64,000 nt of DNA from Schmidtea polychroa (taxonomy: Eukaryota), in assembly GCA_044892525.1 (NCBI GenBank), contig CM097885.1, positions 21,764,001 through 21,828,000 of the forward strand, in the 5' to 3' direction. Each line of letters starts with the position of its first letter. Position 1 is the first letter of the stretch. Below, one piece after another: positions 8,601-63,600 of this stretch. Position numbers and translations under genes: made by a program. The notes under the pieces were generated by a model. It did no database searches, was not told the DNA's origin, and saw only the letters and a list, made by a program, of their open reading frames with translations.

Positions 8601-9141
8601 TCTTCAGGCTAGGAATAAAATTAATGACAACAGTTGGGTATTGTGTGGACCCGGGAACAAAGACATATGACGTCATCGATGACGTCAAAAAGGCATATGA
8701 CGTCATACTCCCACCCCCGGGGAGGGGGTTTTTTTTTTAAATTTTTAAATTTTTTTTAAAAAATATATTACGTTGCGGTATTTTAAAATTTATTATATTT
8801 TAATTATTAAATATATTACGTTGCGGTATTTTAAAAAACTTATTTTGACGGTTAAGTTGACAAAATTATTATTACACACAATATAGTCTATCAGACAAGA
8901 TATTCTGTCACACACACAATCTATAAAAAATATTATTAGTGTCCACACACGCAACAAGTTAGTGTTCTCATCGATAGCTATTGATATATTATTATTATTA
9001 TTAATCTATATACTCCGAGTCTATCCGACAAAATATTCTGTCCCCTTATGGGTACTGCTCACAAGGGTACTGGTCACGCTCAACAACTCGCAAGGGTACA
9101 ATGATATTATTAAACAATGTAATAAAACACATATTTTCTAA

Positions 9142-9189
<48 letters not shown>

Positions 9190-9369
9190 GGGTACTGCTC
9201 ACAAAGGTAAAGGTCACAAAACACACTGGGTAAAGGTCATAAAGGTAACTAACAAAACTTTAACATATTATTATTATTACACACAATGTATAAAAATTGT
9301 TCACAAAGTTACTGTTAAAAAATATTCAAGACAATATGACTAATACATTTATTAAATAATTTAAACACA

Positions 9370-12300
9370 TCATCGACAATAATTATCATCTGCTGGATCA
9401 TGGAAATCATCTGTATCATCTGCTGAGATAGCTTCCGTTGAATCTATAAATATATCGGTGTCACCGCCCCTATAATGGCCATATGCCAAACTTTGATTTT
9501 TATCCACACAATTTCGCTTATCATCTCTACATGTCAAGGCTCTTTTATTATTTTTAATACTAAAAAGTTGGTGATTTTTTGACGTTATTCTAAACTGAGG
9601 GACTGTGTATATTTTATCATTTAAATAACAATCTAGATACGACTGATGTGTTAGTCCAGTATCTTTCATACTTATCTCCTTAGCGTTCATACTTTCCTCG
9701 ACACCCATCAAACTGTAACATTTAGGTCTCAAGAACACCCAATCTTTATATAATAACCCTTTATTCTCGTCTTTGAATTTACCAATGACAGAATCAAGGT
9801 TCCTACTATATAAAGGATGATTTGGGTCATAATTCGAAGTATCTAATAATTGATCTCTAATCATCGCAGGTAAAAGAATGTTAAGACTACAATGTTTAAT
9901 TTCCAAGAAGAAGGAATCTGTGTCTCCAGCAACGATATTAATTTCGCAGTTGAATTCGTCGCGATATTTTTGCAACTCTTCATACTGCAGCTGGTACATC
10001 CTGAGTTTGGATAAATCAAGTACGGTTTGACCAATGTAACTAGGTCTATTCAAACACACTATGTCCTTCCTCAATAAAACCGAAATCAAGTCATCATCGA
10101 TTTTCGTGGATTTACGAAAAGTCGGTTTCGAACAGAATGTTAATAATCTCTGTGAAGAATTACACAGACGTAAATTAATACGTTTTTTAAGATTTTCAAC
10201 AGTCTTGCCGTAAAGACTGTTGTTTAATAATTTATAAAAATTTTTATCGAGTTTATTTGTCGACGCTGCTCGTAACGCCGTATTTGTGTAAATATAATTT
10301 TTGAAAATTTTATCTTGTTTAAATTTAATTGCTCTATGTGTTTTTGATATTTTAACACCTAATTTAATAAATATTTGTAGAAGCCTCCAATGAAGAACAT
10401 AGTTCCTCTTGGGGCTGTGTGTAAGCAACAGCTTCTCTATTTTCGAACCCGGTACACACATCTTTTCAGCGGCAACGGGAAGATCGTCCAGTTTGTCGTG
10501 AATTGACGTCGGTATTTCTAAATCCACTTCTATGGTATAACCATAATCAAGCAGATCTAAATCTACCGTTGTGCATTCAACAATTATATTATTTAATAAA
10601 TTATCATCAGTAACCCATTCAAAGTCACTGCAAGGTAATGGTTGACTTAAAGCCCAACCGTATAAATTATTTATATCTATGTAAAGCAAAGCGGTATCCG
10701 GGTCTGTTTTTACATAATGTTTAATTACAAAAGTTAGTCCGCCACGGATACCGCCCTCGAAAAAGTTATACATCTCCATATCGGTGAGGAGCTCAATTGG
10801 AGAGTTTAAAGTTAATAAGGCTGAATTCCAAGACATACCTGGAATCCCTAAGAAATTTAATGGCTCTAGTCGGTTATGAGCAATGGACTTAGCTCTAAAT
10901 TGCTGGAAAAAATCGGCTAAAAGGAAAACATCAAGTTTTAAATAAACCATCATGTAATCGAAAAGTGAAGTACATGAAGTTTCAACCCAAATTCGCTGAG
11001 CTGTCTCATATTCAGCGGGAGTCACATCTTTCCAAATAGGAGGTAACTGACGAGTGTTATGTAAAACCTCTAATGAAGTTTCGGCATCATAAGGAAAAAT
11101 CCCCTTTGCAGTTATTATTGTACCCTGAAATTCTGATTCGGTCAAGGGTAAAGATGATAAAGTTTTGACAGCATTATTTAAAGACTCGCTGACAAATTGA
11201 TAAGAGTCTATAAATTTAACAGTTAATGAGTCAATCCTAGCAAAAAGACTAAGGAATTTCTCGCTGGTTAAAGGAATACAACTAATATTCCATGAATGAT
11301 ATTTTTGAAAAGCCAAATTTCAAGATATGATGCAGATCATAACCCTTTAAATTATGAAATACTACAGGAAGGGTATGTCTAATTTGCCTCGACAGATTAC
11401 AAGTTGTACAAGCGGCACCGAGATATAGACCGGTAAAATGATCATGGTCCCTAACTGGACTAACTAAAGGCTTATTGCACAAATAGCATGGTGTGCTGTT
11501 TTCAAACATTAATTGTTGCTCATCTGTAATTATCATTTTCTTTTGATAATTTTTATAATAATAAGGAGTTACAATATATTTCCCTATCATTTCAATTTCA
11601 GTAAGAAATTGATCGACACAATCTAAACCGGTGAACGACTTATAAATTTTTACGCCCGTAAAATTATTAATAAAAAGCATACCGGCAGAAATAGGCAGAT
11701 GACGTTGAAAGTAGTGAGTGTCTTTAGGTAAGATAGCCTCAAAGTCAGCGTAAATAACAAAAGGAGGAGTGACTGTTTTACTCCAATCAGTAAATTCTAA
11801 ATATTTATTTTTAGGCAATGTGTACAAGGTAGTACCAAGCTGATTTTTATCGCAAAGACCCTTATGTCTATTAAAAGCGTCATCATTTCTAAAACCGTTT
11901 AAACATCTAGGGCACCACTGACTACAAATCCTAACAGGAGTGATTGAACTATTCCTACAATTAAGGAATCTATTTAGGTCTGTGATTCCAAGATAATGAT
12001 AATTATCATTCTTTTCAATTAATAATAAATTGATAGGTATGGCTCCTACTATCTTACTCCTGTATATTATATCAATAAAGGGATGTTTCATAACTGCATC
12101 TTCATCGGAAATGTCAATCAAAGCCTTTTCGTTATAAGTAAGAACATTTATACTATAACCTGGATTTTGTTGTTCAAATTTACTTATATTTGATAGTTTC
12201 ATCGGCATATCATTAGGATCAAATTTAATTTCAGAAAGATTGTATGAATTAGGGCGATTTCTATATTGCCTATTTATACTATCATATTTAATAATTGACA

Positions 12301-13260
12301 AGAAACTATACAAAAAACAGAAGTGGTCATTATTAACTACATTAACGAGACAGCTTAAGTTTCATAAAGATTTTGGGGTTTCAATAAAACTTCTACCACT
12401 TAACCGACTTATTTCAGCAAATTTAGTCAGAACAAAGCTTATGTATTCTATTTTATTGATAGTCCAATTACTACCTTTCTCATTAATTTTAATTATTTTT
12501 TCATTTAAACGAGCAATACCTTCGTCAATGAATGTATCGCTCCAAACTCGGGCGGAATTCGAGATTGCAAAAGATTGTAACTCATCATCTTTTATAAATT
12601 CCACCTTTAGACAAAATTGAATTTTACATGATATTTATTTATTTATTAAAATGTCTGGTACAGAGACCGTTTTTAAATCTAAAGACGAAACGTCCATTTT
12701 TAATATAATATGATTATTATTTAAATCACTGGTGACATCTACGACACCATAACCTATTTGATTAATATTATTATAATTATTATTATTACCATTATTATAA
12801 TAAATATTACTACTACTACTACTATTATCAATTTCATCATCACTTATGTTGATTATTTCATCATCACTTATTGTAATTACATCAATAACTTTAGATTTTT
12901 TACTTGGTATTGAATTTATTTTTTCATTATTTTTTCTTTTATTCATATTAATTAGATTATTTATTTGATCATTTAATTTATTTACTTGATCTTTTAGTTT
13001 AGTTATTTCGTTTATATCATTATTATTGGTGTTGTTAGTATTATTGTTGATGATATTATTATTATTATTATTGTTGTTGATATTATTATTATTGTTGTTG
13101 ATATTATTATTATTGCTGTTGATATTATTATTATTGTTGTTGTTGATATTATTATTGCTGTTGATATTATTATTATTATTGTTGATATTATTATTATTAT
13201 TATTGCTGTTGATATTATTATTATTATTGTTGTTGTTGATATTATTATTATTGTTGTTGA

Positions 13261-13303
<43 letters not shown>

Positions 13304-14024
13304 AAACGATTCATATAAGCTATAGAAAAGAGACTTCTTAGAAGGTTTAAATTGTTGGAGATGGAGTCCATGCTTATTATAAAATTCCTTATACGTTATA
13401 ACTTCAATAACCTCACATTTAGGGCATAGAATGTAGGTGACACCGTTATATTTATGACTATAATATCTTTCCATTATATCATCGCAGTCATTATGATATT
13501 GACTATTACAAAAGTTTTGGTATTTCAAACCTATGAAAATATTTTTATCATAAAATGTTTAAAAAATATTAAGATAATTTTAATAATCATTTTTAAAGTT
13601 TAAGATATTTTTCGTAAGATATTATTCAAAATTGTCTTTTAAATAGTATCTTATAAAAAATATTATAAAAAAATATATAATTTAATTCGTTTTCATAAAT
13701 AATTTAATTCATTTTCATAAATAAATAATTCATTTTCTAAAATAGATTTTATTTTCATAAATAATATATAAAAGTTATTAATTATAATGTTCAAAATCAT
13801 CATATTTAATAAATCTTCTTTTCAAAATCATCATAAATAAATAAAGAAATCTTCTTTTCATAAATCTTCTTTTCAAAATCATCATAAATAAATCTTCTTT
13901 TCATGAATAAATCTTCTTTTCATAAATAATCCTTTCAAAATCATCATAAATAAATCTTCTTTTAAAATATCTTCTTTTCATGAATAAATCTTCTTTTCAT
14001 AAGTTTCTTTATAATCTTCTTTTA

Positions 14025-14060
<36 letters not shown>

Positions 14061-14388
14061 ATTGTTTAAAAAACTTAAAAACTTATAACAATAAATAAAT
14101 ACTTACATTTTCGTCCTTTCGAAAGAAATTTTCCAGCATCAGAACCAGCAGAAGTATTTATTACATTTCCATCTAAAAGCATAATAAAAATAATAATGAT
14201 TATAATAGTAAACTATTACCATTTATTCTATTCATGTCTACAGCTTGTCCGTCGATATTCATTTTAATTTGTTGATTAGTACCTAATAATCATATTAAAA
14301 ATAATAAAATAATAAATTTACCATTAATTCCTCCAACGATCTTTCCGTCAACTCTTTGAATATTGTTGTTGTTGTTGTTGTTGTTCAT
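9370..14388 (-). pseudogene. Protein-primed family B DNA polymerase (pPolB) with spliced N-terminal leader, TP-like region, OTU-like and EndoVII/HNH domains; disrupted
   Basis: Motifs VIYADFE, VFHNLKGYD, KGIFPYD, YLKLDV, YIDINNLYG, KLLNNSLYGK, GDTDS, GKFKDE, DDKR; CYLC..RDHDH..CTTCN; NNDHFCF..HY. The four ORF-track pieces join through in-frame TAA (12635-12637), TGA (12362-12364) and a 1-nt frameshift near 11302-11310. Leader exons 14322-14388, 14220-14282, 14107-14172, then 13530 onward. AATAAA at 9353-9348. Confidence 0.9.
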
Positions 14389-14414
14389 GTGTTAAATATT
14401 ATTAATAGATTTTT

Positions 14415-14452
14415 AAAAGTGATGAAAAAATGAAAGTGTAGACTATATAAGA
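14415..14452 (-). promoter_or_regulatory. Candidate Pol II core promoter of pPolB: TATA (TTATATAG) plus Inr-like TCACTT
   Basis: TATATA at 14449-14444, TCACTT about 25 nt downstream, ATG at 14388. Confidence 0.5.
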
Positions 14453-14731: not shown

Positions 14732-15143
14732 TTAACCATCAAATTTTTTATACAACAACCATGCCAAACAGTGTTGACCACATGTTTGAGTCAATGGATT
14801 TTGAAACATAGTTTTATTATATACAATAGGTTTCCCAATTGTTTGAAGTTTTGATATCAACAAAGCAGGATAATAGAAACCCATAGGATCGAATACGAAT
14901 ATATTACTAGGTTTCACATATATAGCTATCCAATGTTCTCCACCAAGATGAGACGAATGAGTATTGACGATTATGGCTTGATTATTGCTCAAATAAGGAA
15001 TTTTATCGAGAGGAAAAACACCTACAAATTCATTTCCTAATATTTGTTTTCCAATTCGATTAACCTGAACAGAACTACTTTAATAAAATTAAACAGTATC
15101 AAAAAACTTACTCCATGACAACTTTTTGTGTTTCTGTATACAT
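14732..15143 (-). CDS. Adenain-type (C5) cysteine maturation protease, probably two exons
   Basis: FVGVFPLD, VNTHSSHLGGEHWIA, FDPMG, QNPLTQTCGQHC (His/Asp/Cys/Gln). An ATG is reachable only by removing intron 15075-15111. Stop overlaps AATAAA. Confidence 0.85.
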
Positions 15144-16367
15144 TTATACTAGCACGGTTCTATTTGCAGTAATTTGAACTTCATTTTCAAATACTCCATA
15201 TATTATAACATGTACCGGTTCAGTAATGGCCTTTGCAAACTTAATATCCAGTCGTAAATTTCCGTTTTGTGGTAGTTGACTCTGATTTAAATCAAAATCG
15301 GGAGCTAAAACAAATGTGAAAAATGGATATTTGCTTTTAAATTCTTCTAGAGTTATTCCACAATTCAAGTTTTTATCTAAGTAACCCAGATTTTTAACAA
15401 TACTCTGCATATATGTCGCACAGTAATTATCGCTTTCGAAATCTTGAGTATATGTTTCTCTATAATCAGTATTTTTCGACAAAGTCAATGAAGTAACACC
15501 AAAATTTTTGAAAATTGAGCTGGAAGCAGTATAAGATCCATTATATTGCGTTTCACTTTGAAATGTTACCAGAATAAAATTAGGCATTCTTCTGTCACCA
15601 AATATTTGTTCTTTATAGAATGATGAAGCACCTTTAGCAATAGCAAATTGTACAATTTCCTTTGTTTTTAAAGGATAAATTGCATGTTTTGAATTAAGAC
15701 CCAATTGATGACCAGGTAATACTGACGGGTCTACTCGAACTCTTCTCACCAATAATTTTGCATCAACTAATTGCCATATTGGTGCACCAGTAGCACTAGT
15801 AAGAGATAATGCAGAATCGGACCTTTTCAATCTAATATGTATATTAACTCCTGGTAGTAAATATTTCGGTTGATCCATAAAATCAAGTTGTAATGATGAG
15901 CACATAGTGAATACTTTTGAACCTTTAACCCACTTTTTTCTTTCATCATCTGTTGCTGCATAACCCATAGGTGTAAGACAGGTATCTTTAGTATCGGAAT
16001 TGTAATTTAAAATAGTTTCTATCAAAGCCTTGTGAATGAATGTATTATTTCCGCCCTCAATCTTGATATTATTAAATCCCAACACTGCATCTTTAAACAG
16101 AGTATGAAACAGGAAATTGTTTGGTAATACATCTGCATTGGCATCCAAAACTTTTCTATCTTTATCTACAACTTTGATCTGAACAGTCAATAAAGTATCG
16201 TTCAAATCTAAATATTCAGTTTGCGAACCATTAATATAAAACTCGATATCATTTCTACTATCAGTAATCGAATTCATAGGAAAAACTTCTTCAAATGCTC
16301 CAAATTCTATTACAGCCTGGGGCGATGGTCTATCAAATATACATAATTCGGATTTACCACAAATCAT
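15144..16367 (-). CDS. Polinton major capsid protein (double jelly-roll, hexon-like), 407 aa, intact
   Basis: KSELCIF..P..Q, IEFYING..EYLDL..TLL, DF..QPKYLLPGV, GNLRLDIKF are typical of Polinton MCP. Confidence 0.9.
   Translation of the reverse strand: MICGKSELCIFDRPSPQAVIEFGAFEEVFPMNSITDSRNDIEFYINGSQTEYLDLNDTLLTVQIKVVDKDRKVLDANADVLPNNFLFHTLFKDAVLGFNNIKIEGGNNTFIHKALIETILNYNSDTKDTCLTPMGYAATDDERKKWVKGSKVFTMCSSLQLDFMDQPKYLLPGVNIHIRLKRSDSALSLTSATGAPIWQLVDAKLLVRRVRVDPSVLPGHQLGLNSKHAIYPLKTKEIVQFAIAKGASSFYKEQIFGDRRMPNFILVTFQSETQYNGSYTASSSIFKNFGVTSLTLSKNTDYRETYTQDFESDNYCATYMQSIVKNLGYLDKNLNCGITLEEFKSKYPFFTFVLAPDFDLNQSQLPQNGNLRLDIKFAKAITEPVHVIIYGVFENEVQITANRTVLV

Positions 16368-17663: not shown

Positions 17664-17667
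<4 letters not shown>
16651..17667 (-). CDS. Polinton minor capsid protein (penton); start probably GTG at 17667 (mutated ATGA overlap) or upstream ATGs at 17694/17718
   Basis: FYTILPSNS..N..SKF..L..L.GDWEVAL; IYTNII..VGDSSVPLL; PMYLPI..IEINIRD.SG..INF..LTLHF. Confidence 0.85.
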
Positions 17668-18393
<726 letters not shown>

Positions 18394-19029
18394 TTTGCAT
18401 AATAATGATAATTATGGTTATAATAATATTCAATGAAAAAGGTAGAAAGTAAAATTTAGAAATTCTGTTAGTGTTGTCTTTTAGCGTTTATTTTAAAGAA
18501 ATTTCTGGTACTTCCTTGTCAAAATGACTGTTGTAAAAGTTTTGCACTTTCCATAATAATATATTTATGAAGAAGTATATTCAAATAGTTTGAGAATGTG
18601 TAATAATCATTATTGGAAATATTTCCCAGATTATCTGTTAGAGTGGCTTAGGCGATTAAATTTATTTGTAATAAAGAATAATAATCTATTTTTATTTCTT
18701 TTTAAACCATTACTGCTAAAAGATAAGTCCAGAGTCACACATTTTAAAATTCGATTTCATTGAATAAATCGGAATTTCTAAAATGAGATAAAATTAAACT
18801 TTCTGAGTCAAATTGTGTGTCAATTATTAAATTATAATATATAATGTTGCAATTCTTTGAATTTAAATTTATTAAAATAGCTGAGTGTATTTTTATTAAA
18901 GTCAATTGCATTTTCTTGCGTTTATTTATATTCATCAGTCAATAGAGCAGTTATATAAATAGCCCTATCAAACATGCCATTGATATTGATAACTTTTTTA
19001 CATGCACTTGTTAGTGATTGAGGTGACAT

Positions 19030-20300: not shown

Positions 20301-22778
<2,478 letters not shown>

Positions 22779-27946: not shown

Positions 27947-56455
<28,509 letters not shown>

Positions 56456-59114: not shown

Positions 59115-59882
59115 CTAACGGACTTCATGAATCTCATGTTCCCATTCGGTGTCGGCGAGCAACTCGTCCAGATCAAAGAATTCGGAGGCACTTTCCTCCC
59201 ATGTCACGCCAGCCGCCGAGATGATGCGCGCTGGGGCCCCTGTTGTCAAGTCGATGGACACTCGAGAACTACCACCGCCAGTAGAGTCTTCTATTGACAG
59301 GAGGCTTGGCTTGGTGGACGCACGCTCACGCTGCCTACGCTTTCGTTCCGCACGCGATAATTGTTTGCGCTTGGGTTTGCTCGTAGTTGTGGTGGTTGGA
59401 AGCGCAGTGGGTATAGAGATGTTAGCAGCTGAAGTCTTGCTAGTACCCGGGAGGACAACGTCCGGTCGCCCAGGTGAAAGTTCGGTTTCCACGCAGTCTC
59501 GACACGGTCTCTTGAACGGCGGAGATGGATCCGAGGAAGGGTTGTGATGAGGCGGAAAGATGTTATCGGCCTCTTTGATAGGAATCTGCACTATTTTTCG
59601 GGTTGTAGCCGCCTGCACGTAGACTTTGTGCAGTGCCTCTGACTGTTCTTTGATGAGACTTCTTTGGGCACGGCTCTCAGATATTAGCGCGTCCCGGCAA
59701 TGCTCGCTACGATCGAGCTTCTTTTGGATCTCTTTCATCCGAGCGGGACTAAACCATGTCCCTTCTAGCTCATCTATCTTCCTTTTGTAACGTCCAATCT
59801 GGGTTTGCAGATCTTTGATGATGGCGTTTTTATCCGCACAAGAGAAGCACGGACGTAACGCAGGTTTGGTAGTTGGTATCAT
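59115..59882 (-). CDS. LTR-encoded hypothetical protein, 255 aa (CxxC, coiled coil, Arg-rich motif, acidic tail)
   Basis: Uninterrupted GC-rich ORF; ATG at 59882 preceded by acceptor-like TTCTTTATAG; AATAAA about 95 nt after the stop. Confidence 0.7.
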   Translation of the reverse strand: MIPTTKPALRPCFSCADKNAIIKDLQTQIGRYKRKIDELEGTWFSPARMKEIQKKLDRSEHCRDALISESRAQRSLIKEQSEALHKVYVQAATTRKIVQIPIKEADNIFPPHHNPSSDPSPPFKRPCRDCVETELSPGRPDVVLPGTSKTSAANISIPTALPTTTTTSKPKRKQLSRAERKRRQRERASTKPSLLSIEDSTGGGSSRVSIDLTTGAPARIISAAGVTWEESASEFFDLDELLADTEWEHEIHEVR

Positions 59883-60637
59883 GCTCGCTATAAAGAATGA
59901 GGTTAAGACGTAATATGTACATGGTTGAAGAAAATACGTGGAATACGAATAATCGACTGCCCGTGGATATCCAGCCATCAAACAACAATGAATGTCCTTA
60001 CTCGTCGATTTAGATTATGTACAAAATTACTTAATTCCATTAAATAACACTAGGTTGACGGAATACAATTCTTTACCTAATCGAACTATACTGATTTGAC
60101 GAATGCAATTCGATTAATACAGGTTCAGGGGTACCTTTACAAACCCTAAAATTTTCCTATTGACCTAGAATTTCATTTATGATCAAAATTTACGAGACCT
60201 CGACGCTAACAACCTTTCCAATGCTCGTGACCCTGTCACCCACTCGCACAACCTTATATGTGATAGTTTAAAGATTGACGATATTTGGAAAATTATTAGA
60301 AATAATGGTAATATTATGTTGTCTAATAAAAACTTCGATACATTACTTATCGCGCTTTGTTAAAATTTTATATGATTATTTATGTGGTCTGCTAAATGAG
60401 ATTATTAATATTACCTAACGTCTAATTTTAAATATTTCTAATTATCTAAAATCTAAATAATTTATAATTAATTTAAAATTCCTATTGGTGATTAAAAGTG
60501 AACTTATCAATATTACCTAAAAATCTAATTTGAATTATTCTAATATTCAAACATCAATACTTTATAATTAATTGAAAATTTCTATTGGTGATCGGAAATG
60601 GTTATAATTGTCCGTGATTATCTCATGATTAATCTAG

Positions 60638-63600
60638 TAGGGTGGAGTGAAAATTTTTTTTTCTTAATATCTTGTTTGGATAGCTATAAAAACTTGGTAA
60701 CACATGCAATTAGTAATGTGGCAAACAATTAGACAATTTAAAGCATATCTTGAGGTTCCACAATTGACCTAAAGTATAGGCATATTTCGATAAAAAAGCA
60801 ATAATCTTTAAAAAAAACATTTTTTTATAAGTAACATATTTATGTTATGGTTTAACTTTTTAACAGTCTGTACATAACATTACAAGTAATAAGAACCATA
60901 TCTGTGAAGGGAAACCACATGCAAACTGTCTAACATGTTTTTATAACTACAAATGATGTTGGGCTTTGGTGTCCAGTTTTGGCATTTTCGATCTCGATTC
61001 CAAGCGTGCTCTAATGAATCCGTCGCGTTTTTCTGGACCACACACCATTTCGGATGCTTCTGTCACTAGCTTGATATGTCTCTCTACTGCCTGGGTTTGA
61101 CAAGGATAGCGGGCGAAATCCAGTCTTGGCGTTTCTTCTTCCCGGATCATGGTTAACAAAGTATCTTCGTCAATGTCCACTACGATTGGAGGCTCTGTGA
61201 TCGGAGTTTTCTGCCAATCGATCATGTCTATGTAGCTAGTAGCTTCAAAGTTGATTACTGGCACGCAGAAAGATCTAACTGAAGTCGTACGTTTCTGCTT
61301 TCTGGATTTCAGTATGCGTCGCAGAGCTAACTCGCGTATATCTGATCTTTCATCGGTAAGCATCGCAAGCAACAGATTTTCTGGATGACTAAAGAATGCG
61401 TTGCGTTGAATTACCGGGTCAACAACTTTCTTCAGCTCGTCTGTGAGGTAGCGTGATTTCAGTATCGTACTGTGGACATGTCAAGCGCCGTCTTTACACG
61501 AAGGGGTATTCTTTATTTCAAACCATGCAGGTGCATAAACTGTTACGATAAAGGTAGCAAGCGTCTTTAGTTCATCCGACGGGCTTCTTGTGGCAACATA
61601 CAGACGTAGTATGCGATTAGCCGTGGTTAACCATCTCGAATGGTTGATAAGACCAGGATTGCGAAGTGAATGGTCGACAGGACAAATACCAACACTTACA
61701 GCAGTACACAAATCGAACAGGTATTTCTGATCTGTACTTAAATCGTCGGAATTTGCACTTGACGGTAGAACACAGTTTATCGGCATGTAGTCAACGATGG
61801 GAAGCTTCTCACAATTCAACAATGACTTTCCAATGGGACCAGAAAATCCTTTTGGACCATTGGTAGGTCCATCAAGATACTGAAACAAATGTCTTAACGG
61901 TAATTCGTTTGCATGCAACTGACATACGAACCACTGTAGTGGTCTGTGTAACGTCACTTCAAGTAATCGAATGATGCCTCCTCGAATGCCCGTATTAGTG
62001 GCTGTCCCATCACAACCTATTGCTTTTATGCCACTCGTGTCAACATTTCTTTTATTCAAATATGCAATCAACTCAGCCGTGATAACTTTGCTTGACCCTG
62101 CAGTTGGTGTAATGTGACCGAAATATGTAGCTCCTGGTTCGGCTATAATCGATATATGTTCTTCAGTTATTATTTTCCGATGAAATTTACCATCGCATTC
62201 TTTAATTTGGGTCATTGTATTGTCTTTTCTGCCGTCAAAATATAACCCAGTGATTGTGTTACTGACTTCGGCACATAATGCGCCACGCTTATTACAACGT
62301 TCTCGACGCACTTTACTTCTGTCAATCACTTTAGAAACATCATGTTCGTGGATTATTCCAACATCTTGAAGAACAGCACTGGCGATTCCTGCTGCCGCCC
62401 TGTCGGATACGCCATGTCGATCACACGCTAAAGCCAACGACGGTAGCTTAACTCTCATCTGCTTGTCATTCAATTTTCGCTGTTGTTTAATTTGGCTTAT
62501 ACAATCGTCATCAGAGTCATCATCGCCGGTATCCATTTCCTCTTCCATTCCAGAAATCTCGTCACAGACATCCGACTGTTTATCACCGATGTCATCAATG
62601 GCAGATTTGGTACACATCTGCCTCTGTGTCGACTCTTTACGGATATACCGCTTTTGTAATCTACTGGATTCAACCTCATCAACTCCAGCTATGATCATAC
62701 TGCGTGAACCCCGCTGATCTTCTAGAAAGTCACGTTCAATTGTGGGTATCTTTCTTGACTTCTCACAGTGACACTGAGACATACAAGAGCACTTGCAGGA
62801 GCAAATGTCAAAGAGTTTAATCGATTCATCTTTAAACTGCGATATTTTCTCTCTGTATGGTTCTGAGTCCTTCCTAGATTTATACGGCTTCAGCAATTTC
62901 ATGAACGTCTTGTGGTACACGTTCAACATTTCATGAACACGGCGGTAGCTTACATGTGGTATGGAAGCTTTGTCCCATATTTGTTCTACTTTCATTGACA
63001 CTGTTTCTGCCACGTTGCGATGTGAAGGATCTTTATTGTTCAATTCGCATTTCAGTCTCTGCTTTGTCAGGTTGTAGAATTTCATAACATCTGCATAAGT
63101 CGGTAGTTGATTGTCGGGCATCTCGGATGGACCACCAAAGATGACACAAGACACTTTCTTTCTGGTTACAGCCATTGCAACTCTAAAAAGGAAAACCAGA
63201 GGCATTTTAAATCCATATTATTTAAATGCCATCAATGACTTCAATAATATGTTATAATATTACCTCTTATAATGAAGTATCGTAGTGGAGTAATTATTTA
63301 TCACTAACAATACTACATACAGCGATTCAAAAAAAATACAATGTTATGCAATATGTATGCAATAATCCGTCTGAATTGACTCTAGAAACAGGAAGTGCAG
63401 CGTGTGAATGCGTAGAAAAGTGAACTAATAATGATCTTTTAGTTAACAGTAAGTAACGATAACGTATTAGTGGAAGCAAAAAGTTGCCAATTCCTTGTAA
63501 TGAAAAGAACACCGGATAGCAAATACATTATCGTTTTCTTATCAATGGTTACATTTTAAAGTTGGTTGTGGAACCTCAAGACATTATTTAAATTATTGTT

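Follow-up and report, generated by a model that had tools for sequence, protein, structure and literature searches.

The window analysed here, a stretch of 64,000 nucleotides from a Schmidtea polychroa contig (CM097885.1), carries on its minus strand a member of the Polinton/Maverick group. Its polymerase is recognized by PF03175 (E 1.4e-24) together with PF02945 in a Pfam scan, the pieces of the gene contain vOTU-, Exo- and Pol-type motifs, and most of the gene lies in exon 4 (9370-13530), which holds the body of a protein-primed family B polymerase (pPolB) polyprotein. Upstream of it are an adenain-type protease, whose exon 2 (15074-14732) matches PF00770 (E 1.6e-6), a single-frame gene for a major capsid protein of the double-jelly-roll type (15144-16367; Atlas feature score 0.97), and the 3' part of a retroviral-type integrase (17664-18400), for which the match to PF13683 (E 0.0027) is below the cut-off. 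The capsid belongs to an Atlas cluster in which 65% of members carry PF21738, with a recognition value below the tool's mark of 2300, and sister copies have frames of about 390 aa at the place of the integrase. Downstream of the polymerase, a terminal repeat region on the same strand (8632-9250) is common to 26-31 of 40 flanking loci and to none past about 8630, which puts the element end near 8632. The pPolB, the integrase, the adenain-type protease and the double-jelly-roll capsid are the traits of a Polinton/Maverick; intronless core ORFs, a described trait of the group rather than a formal criterion, are predicted not to extend to this element.

The window copy is a decayed member of its kind, unable to make a full polymerase. 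The polymerase frame is broken by stops at 12635 and 12362 and by a frame change near 11300, so that the spliced frame described below would end after about 360 codons. A reading made earlier from the letters alone (the sequence-only reading) had described the start of the polymerase gene as we find it but had missed this downstream break. The element is truncated inside the integrase near 18400, where similarity to other copies stops; the opposite element end is absent, and so is the packaging ATPase, for which sister copies have a candidate, a P-loop ORF of ~213 aa upstream of the integrase. The cut falls at a long ATT run (18290-18400), and sister copies have shorter runs there. An integrase intron at the trinucleotide run near 18290 was considered and rejected, as sister copies read through the run.

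The 3' exons of the host PI4KA gene lie at 20304-22778 on the plus strand, and the homologues of highest identity are cestode, trematode and monogenean proteins (72-75%). As 1-20300 yielded no upstream PI4KA exon, the Polinton probably sits antisense inside a long PI4KA intron. At 100-1500, a stretch resembling a Polinton terminal region, in the orientation opposite to that of 8632-9250, is probably the end of another Polinton copy. Elsewhere in the window, long open frames of 528, 299, 177 and 578 aa at 34864-36450 (plus strand) and 59115-63217 (minus strand) had no Pfam match at the cut-off.

The polymerase gene is predicted to begin not in its large exon but in three small ones upstream of it. 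A predicted TATA box (14443-14449, with TATATA at 14449) stands 29 nt before the A of an initiator-like element (14417-14422), which would set the start of transcription near 14420. TATATAG is kept in 29 other copies of the same family (family A), and a TATA-to-initiator spacing of 29-31 nt recurs in families A, B and D. The ATG at 14388 opens coding exon 1 (14322-14388; 67 nt, that is 22 codons with an Asn run, plus 1 nt), which is followed by intron 1 (14283-14321; 39 nt), exon 2 (14220-14282; 63 nt), intron 2 (14173-14219; 47 nt), exon 3 (14107-14172; 66 nt) and the repeat-rich intron 3 (13531-14106; 576 nt). All three introns are GT-AG and phase 1, with donors GTAAAT, GTAATA and GTAAGT, and they have the features of U2-type introns: GT-AG ends, a GTAA-type donor, a T-rich acceptor and a host-sized length. 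GC content is 30-34% in the exons and 8-15% in the introns. No stop codon occurs in exons 1-3, and their splicing would give one open frame, with a predicted leader of 65 coding residues, that runs into the large ORF; read unspliced from ATG 14388, the frame ends after 32 codons at an in-frame TGA inside intron 1. The last base of exon 3 is base 1 of a conserved Cys codon, and exon 4 starts with a Cys/His-rich domain (13316-13530) that is predicted to bind zinc.

These exons and introns, the open spliced frame, the stop in intron 1 and the position of the ATG downstream of a TATA/initiator pair had all been put forward in the sequence-only reading, and each of them holds on the minus strand with every coordinate unchanged. 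Its remark that the short introns are near host size also stands: the PI4KA intron within the window is 42 nt long, so 39-47 nt falls in the host range. The planarian intron length peak, in the available part of PMC13594981, is 45-85 nt; the 39 nt of intron 1 is below that peak, and introns 1 and 2 are at or below it. With strong donors only, 14450-13531 contains seven open chains from an ATG to the acceptor. The longest is the three-exon chain, with 196 coding nt; each of the other six is either a part of that chain or begins at an ATG further in. A tandem duplication as the source of exons 1 and 2 in family A was considered and rejected, with 64 and 108 of 1000 shuffles scoring equally well.

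Family A is large and young, with at least 150 polymerase-core matches, all of those listed being 98-100% identical. Between its exact exon flanks, intron 2 is present at 203 genomic places and missing at none; a search with patterns that had no positive control found no intron-less genomic copy of intron 1 or 3. Conservation was scored in the 29 copies closest to the leader, a choice that favours intact copies, and part of the conservation is therefore ascertainment. The ATG is present in all 29. Exon 1 measures 58, 61, 64 or 67 nt, always 3n+1, exons 2 and 3 are 63 and 66 nt throughout, and frame-shifting length changes were found in none of the three exons (0/29 in each). Intron 1, by comparison, is 31, 39 or 47 nt long, with a frame-shifting change in 15 of 29 copies, and intron 3 ranges over 474-832 nt and all three mod-3 classes, with a frame-shifting change in 14 of the 26 copies alignable at acceptor 3 (counts for this intron omit L002, L010 and L014). 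Intron 2 is 47 nt in 29/29 copies and hence offers no indel test. GT is kept at all donors in all 29 copies, and AG at the acceptors of introns 1 and 2 (29/29 each) and of intron 3 (26/26). The comparison among copies that the sequence-only reading had suggested thus finds splice dinucleotides and exon frame kept, and free indels in introns 1 and 3. The same reading had expected ORF callers to miss a spliced start, as indeed they would: each of 20 copies has a long frame that starts just 7-10 codons ahead of acceptor 3, in a stretch with a Met in 1/20 copies and no Cys. The distinct variants in the leader, nearly all in single copies, comprise 28 non-synonymous and 2 synonymous changes and 1 stop, a pattern that would fit decay after insertion and offers no evidence that the leader peptide is under selection.

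Seven further Polinton families (B-H) were reached in the same genome via neighbouring insertions. In six of these (B, C, E, F, G and H) the domain is 38-44% identical to that of family A, and an AG|GY acceptor falls at the same codon as in A, two residues before a conserved Tyr/Phe. AG stands at the shared acceptor position in 66 of 70 loci, a set in which three loci have no usable domain start and one is frame-shifted. In all seven families with this last leader intron, A included, a T stands just before its donor, and the codon that the intron interrupts encodes Cys. The last leader intron is long in each of them (373-1442 nt), and the other introns are mostly near 50 nt. The coding leader exons number one in B (plus a 5'-UTR intron), two in F, three in A, four in C, E and G, and five in H, the model for G being partly by eye; coding introns range from one to six per family. 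The leader peptides are of low complexity and unrelated between families. Among leader introns modelled by script, with one family G intron left out of the count, 21 of 22 are phase 1, the exception being intron 1 of family F (phase 0); with this and the phase-2 intron of the protease, a rule that all introns are phase 1 was rejected. GT-AG is kept in 59 of 60 introns in family C and in 26 of the 27 introns found among 30 loci of family B. Could the splice-like signals be chance matches in AT-rich repeat DNA? The leader region has 13-25% GC, and GT/AG pairs are common in it. However, the same acceptor, phase and split residue are found in seven divergent families, with a contrast between exon and intron GC in every family modelled, and we regard a chance origin as next to incredible.

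The families also differ in ways of their own. The family H leader contains two near-identical consecutive exons of 93 and 99 nt (L184 1940-2185), which at the level of sequence is direct evidence of exon duplication. An identical frame of 1314 codons recurs in many family C copies, and this family must therefore be very young. The last intron of family B, of 1.1 kb (L108 399-1497), carries on its antisense strand two open frames, 76 and 49 codons long, that resemble a nested and possibly spliced gene.

Family D lacks the shared last leader intron, yet is very abundant. Six introns interrupt its polymerase gene, one inside the ATG, two after the domain and three in the conserved body, and all six are phase 1 as read by eye (L158 1020-2160 and L198-L207). 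Removing the three body introns restores colinearity with the uninterrupted polymerase of the window, which argues that the introns in these polymerase genes are real. One of the body introns varies between 41 and 116 nt among 10 copies. Many of the 150 family D matches listed form head-to-head pairs 2-10 kb apart.

A profile of the exon 4 start retrieved 51 homologues among 1.84 billion proteins. The full core motif is present in 33, of which 32 have room upstream, and in all 32 of these scorable homologues a Cys precedes the next Cys by 5-7 residues, often 2-4 residues after a Met. In family D the same Cys is present in an unsplit codon; in family A the unspliced frame has Gly at this position. 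Since the Cys is unsplit in family D and present in 32/32 outside homologues, it is likely to be ancestral and the leader a later addition. Some homologues carry the domain in two or three tandem copies. A structural model of one homologue (P0008) reached a pLDDT of 87; it had no Foldseek match at E 0.001, the closest rows, aligned over 33 columns at E about 2, being C2H2 fingers, and its best VIA Z was 2.4, values that speak neither for a novel fold nor for a known one. Pfam gave no match for the domain, Atlas matches were all <0.9, and we consider the domain to be an undescribed module that, from its Cys/His pattern, probably binds zinc. In thirteen of the 51 homologues the protein stops a little past the domain, with a tail resembling read-through of a phase-1 donor (one further match was judged false); like the nine homologues called from an inner Met, described below, these hint at such introns in other hosts, which would trip ORF callers there. 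A word-index search of protein databases found no longer relative of the exon 4 start, a read-through query of exon 1, intron 1 and exon 2, which is a weak test, found no database protein with the leader, and among viral contigs neither P0005 nor the polymerase core had a relative.

The conserved positions of this domain also bear on where translation begins. The upstream exons might be untranslated, or form a separate tiny gene, and the polymerase might start at ATG 13474, the first in-frame ATG of exon 4, which is located inside the Cys/His domain. That leader peptides show neither kinship between families nor a selection signal within family A would suit such a start, and 9 of the 51 homologues are called from the equivalent inner Met. 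However, a start at this ATG loses four conserved Cys/His positions, the leader of every family is open from its ATG into the polymerase frame and supplies the same Cys, and exon 1 changes in length only in threes. An inner start is in our judgement very improbable.

The protease gene is predicted to be spliced as well. Its first coding exon measures only 5 nt, the ATG plus 2 nt (15116-15112), and is followed on the minus strand by a predicted GT-AG intron of 37 nt in phase 2 (15075-15111). Families B (41 nt) and C have an intron at the corresponding position. Because this intron, too, is near the start, introns close to the start codon seem to be a general trait of these elements. One family C locus (L134 3000-3140) has a protease gene that is cut short after ~13 codons, immediately ahead of the polymerase leader.

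Four sequencing runs were used, as contigs only; three were guessed to be RNA (X1-X3) and one is DNA-like. The 15 joints listed all come from the DNA-like run and none is at the three leader introns (78 further joints are unlisted). One X1 contig, of depth 20, is unspliced across acceptor 3 (13320-13621), the RNA status of X1 being a guess, and a guessed-RNA contig is unspliced across the protease intron (15024-15160). Such contigs could represent pre-mRNA, read-through or DNA, and they count weakly against splicing, or for intron retention; the one over the protease intron may reflect read-through from the capsid gene or speak against that intron. Cover of the leader in X1-X3 is low or none and was not used as evidence.

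What would the element gain from a spliced polymerase? The third intron of the P element is a model for a control switch limited by splicing, and by analogy the last leader intron might be removed only in some cells, or its removal blocked by piRNAs, so that polymerase is made only when licensed. Several features would agree with such a switch. The base needed for Cys is supplied by the end of exon 3 alone, and chains without that exon keep the frame but encode Gly; it is the last intron that is long in all seven families, and the unspliced contig of guessed RNA status spans it. Planarian Polintons are piRNA targets, and more precisely SMEDWI-2 targets, in the available text of PMC8532177. However, the splice sites are strong consensus sites, the length of intron 3 is free and no conserved interior was seen between families, and family D is very abundant without this intron. 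We hold a switch of this kind to be improbable. A broader proposal, that a Polinton lineage, probably spanning several hosts, is intron-rich in its core genes with a strong bias to phase 1, and that excision of the last leader intron serves as a licence, appears rather doubtful to us. If it were true, only fully spliced RNA would complete the first metal ligand of the undescribed domain, and host or element would gain a post-transcriptional switch on replication.

Taken together, the evidence from family A copies, from the comparison of families, from the conserved Cys and from family D makes it very likely, as judged from sequence, that splicing of the polymerase leader is real and inherited across a lineage. 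The account we strongly favour is that host Pol II and the host spliceosome would produce one mRNA for the leader and the polymerase polyprotein, and that the last intron is inherited. Transcription would proceed from a host-type TATA promoter, the spliceosome would remove three ordinary GT-AG introns, and splicing would add the 65-residue leader and complete the first Cys of the predicted zinc-binding domain. The polyprotein would then read leader, Cys/His domain, Asn-rich linker, terminal protein, vOTU protease, exonuclease and polymerase, an order that follows the available text of PMC11161782 and in which the terminal protein is assigned by position only.

From these comparisons, rather than from a phylogenetic tree, we infer that the original protein started only a few residues ahead of the Cys, that a phase-1 intron entered the Cys codon in an ancestor of the seven families, and that each family then grew its own low-complexity leader of one to five mostly symmetric phase-1 exons, by exon duplication in at least one family. 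The common exon phase would keep the frame as the leader grows. With the intron inside the Cys codon, ignoring it loses a metal ligand, and since the element copies as DNA the last intron would rarely be lost. The element probably tolerates the leader peptide as an appendage, and probably benefits from the 5' introns in its expression, as host genes do from theirs.

The sequence-only reading had confined its claim to a polymerase leader, and this proved too narrow: the trait runs through a whole lineage, whose families have one to six coding introns each, and it extends to the protease. The prediction is one of spliced core genes in Polintons, whose core genes are otherwise described as intronless. 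If the lineage needs host splicing, ORF pipelines would truncate or miss polymerase and protease and may score working elements as broken, and the element, like adenoviruses, would depend in its cycle on Pol II transcription and splicing in the nucleus. Eight families with shared and private introns would offer a system for intron gain in a virus-like element that replicates as DNA. The host is of planarian type, with rich RNA data and with Polintons as piRNA targets, which makes the splicing question directly testable.

Intact vertebrate Mavericks are without introns in the accessible portion of PMC8097293, where Kapitonov and Jurka 2006 is cited in agreement, and endogenous viruses of protists are assumed to be intron-free, their genes being called with prokaryotic ORF finders, in the available text of PMC10120064. 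Group I introns occur in PLVs according to the part of PMC12220804 at hand. In the literature available to us, partly as excerpts, we found no report of inherited spliceosomal introns in Polinton core genes; an earlier annotation, for example in Repbase, is possible. The available parts of PMC8502044, PMC11161782, PMC6431247, PMC11296320 and PMC11244446, and likewise of 10.1101/2023.08.22.554363, 10.1101/2024.03.25.586562 and 10.64898/2026.07.28.741278, contain nothing on spliced Polinton core genes.

The closest known system is formed by the Polintons/Mavericks (eupolintoviruses, 'adintoviruses') with an OTU domain and a PF03175 Alpha-type pPolB, as far as the available text of PMC8502044 and PMC11161782 describes them. 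The element analysed here resembles them in its vOTU-type Cys/His and Exo/Pol motifs, rve integrase, adenain-type protease, double-jelly-roll capsid and terminal repeats, and in the putative packaging ATPase of its sister copies. It differs from them in the predicted spliceosomal introns of polymerase and protease, and in the extra N-terminal Cys/His domain ('zinc' is absent from the main text of PMC11161782).

The adenovirus E2B mRNAs for polymerase and pTP encode a related protein-primed polymerase and have the start codon in a small upstream exon; their leaders are distant and shared and contribute few coding residues. The leader predicted here, by comparison, has 65 coding residues in adjacent, gene-specific exons with host-type introns of 39-47 nt. 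The sequence-only reading had called it an adenovirus-like multi-intron leader. The multi-exon start of the polymerase is upheld, but the adenovirus part would be an analogy rather than a claim of homology in leader or intron position. A derivation of adenoviruses from polintons is the view given in the available text of PMC11161782.

Two further systems join Polintons with host splicing. Dinoflagellate eupolintoviral introners likewise place spliceosomal-type introns inside Polinton-like elements, but the available text of PMC12166617 presents them as copies of transposons that generate introns, most of them acquired once the element had integrated, whereas the last intron here appears ancestral to seven families, is shared by hundreds of element copies and interrupts a conserved codon; no repeat common to the introns came to notice here. 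In nematodes, Mavericks spread genes that need host splicing (wasp and krma); there, in the available part of 10.1101/2022.07.12.499685, the core genes are intronless and introns occur only in cargo, wasp and krma being host-derived cargo, whereas in the planarian families the gene that would depend on host splicing is the element's own replication gene.
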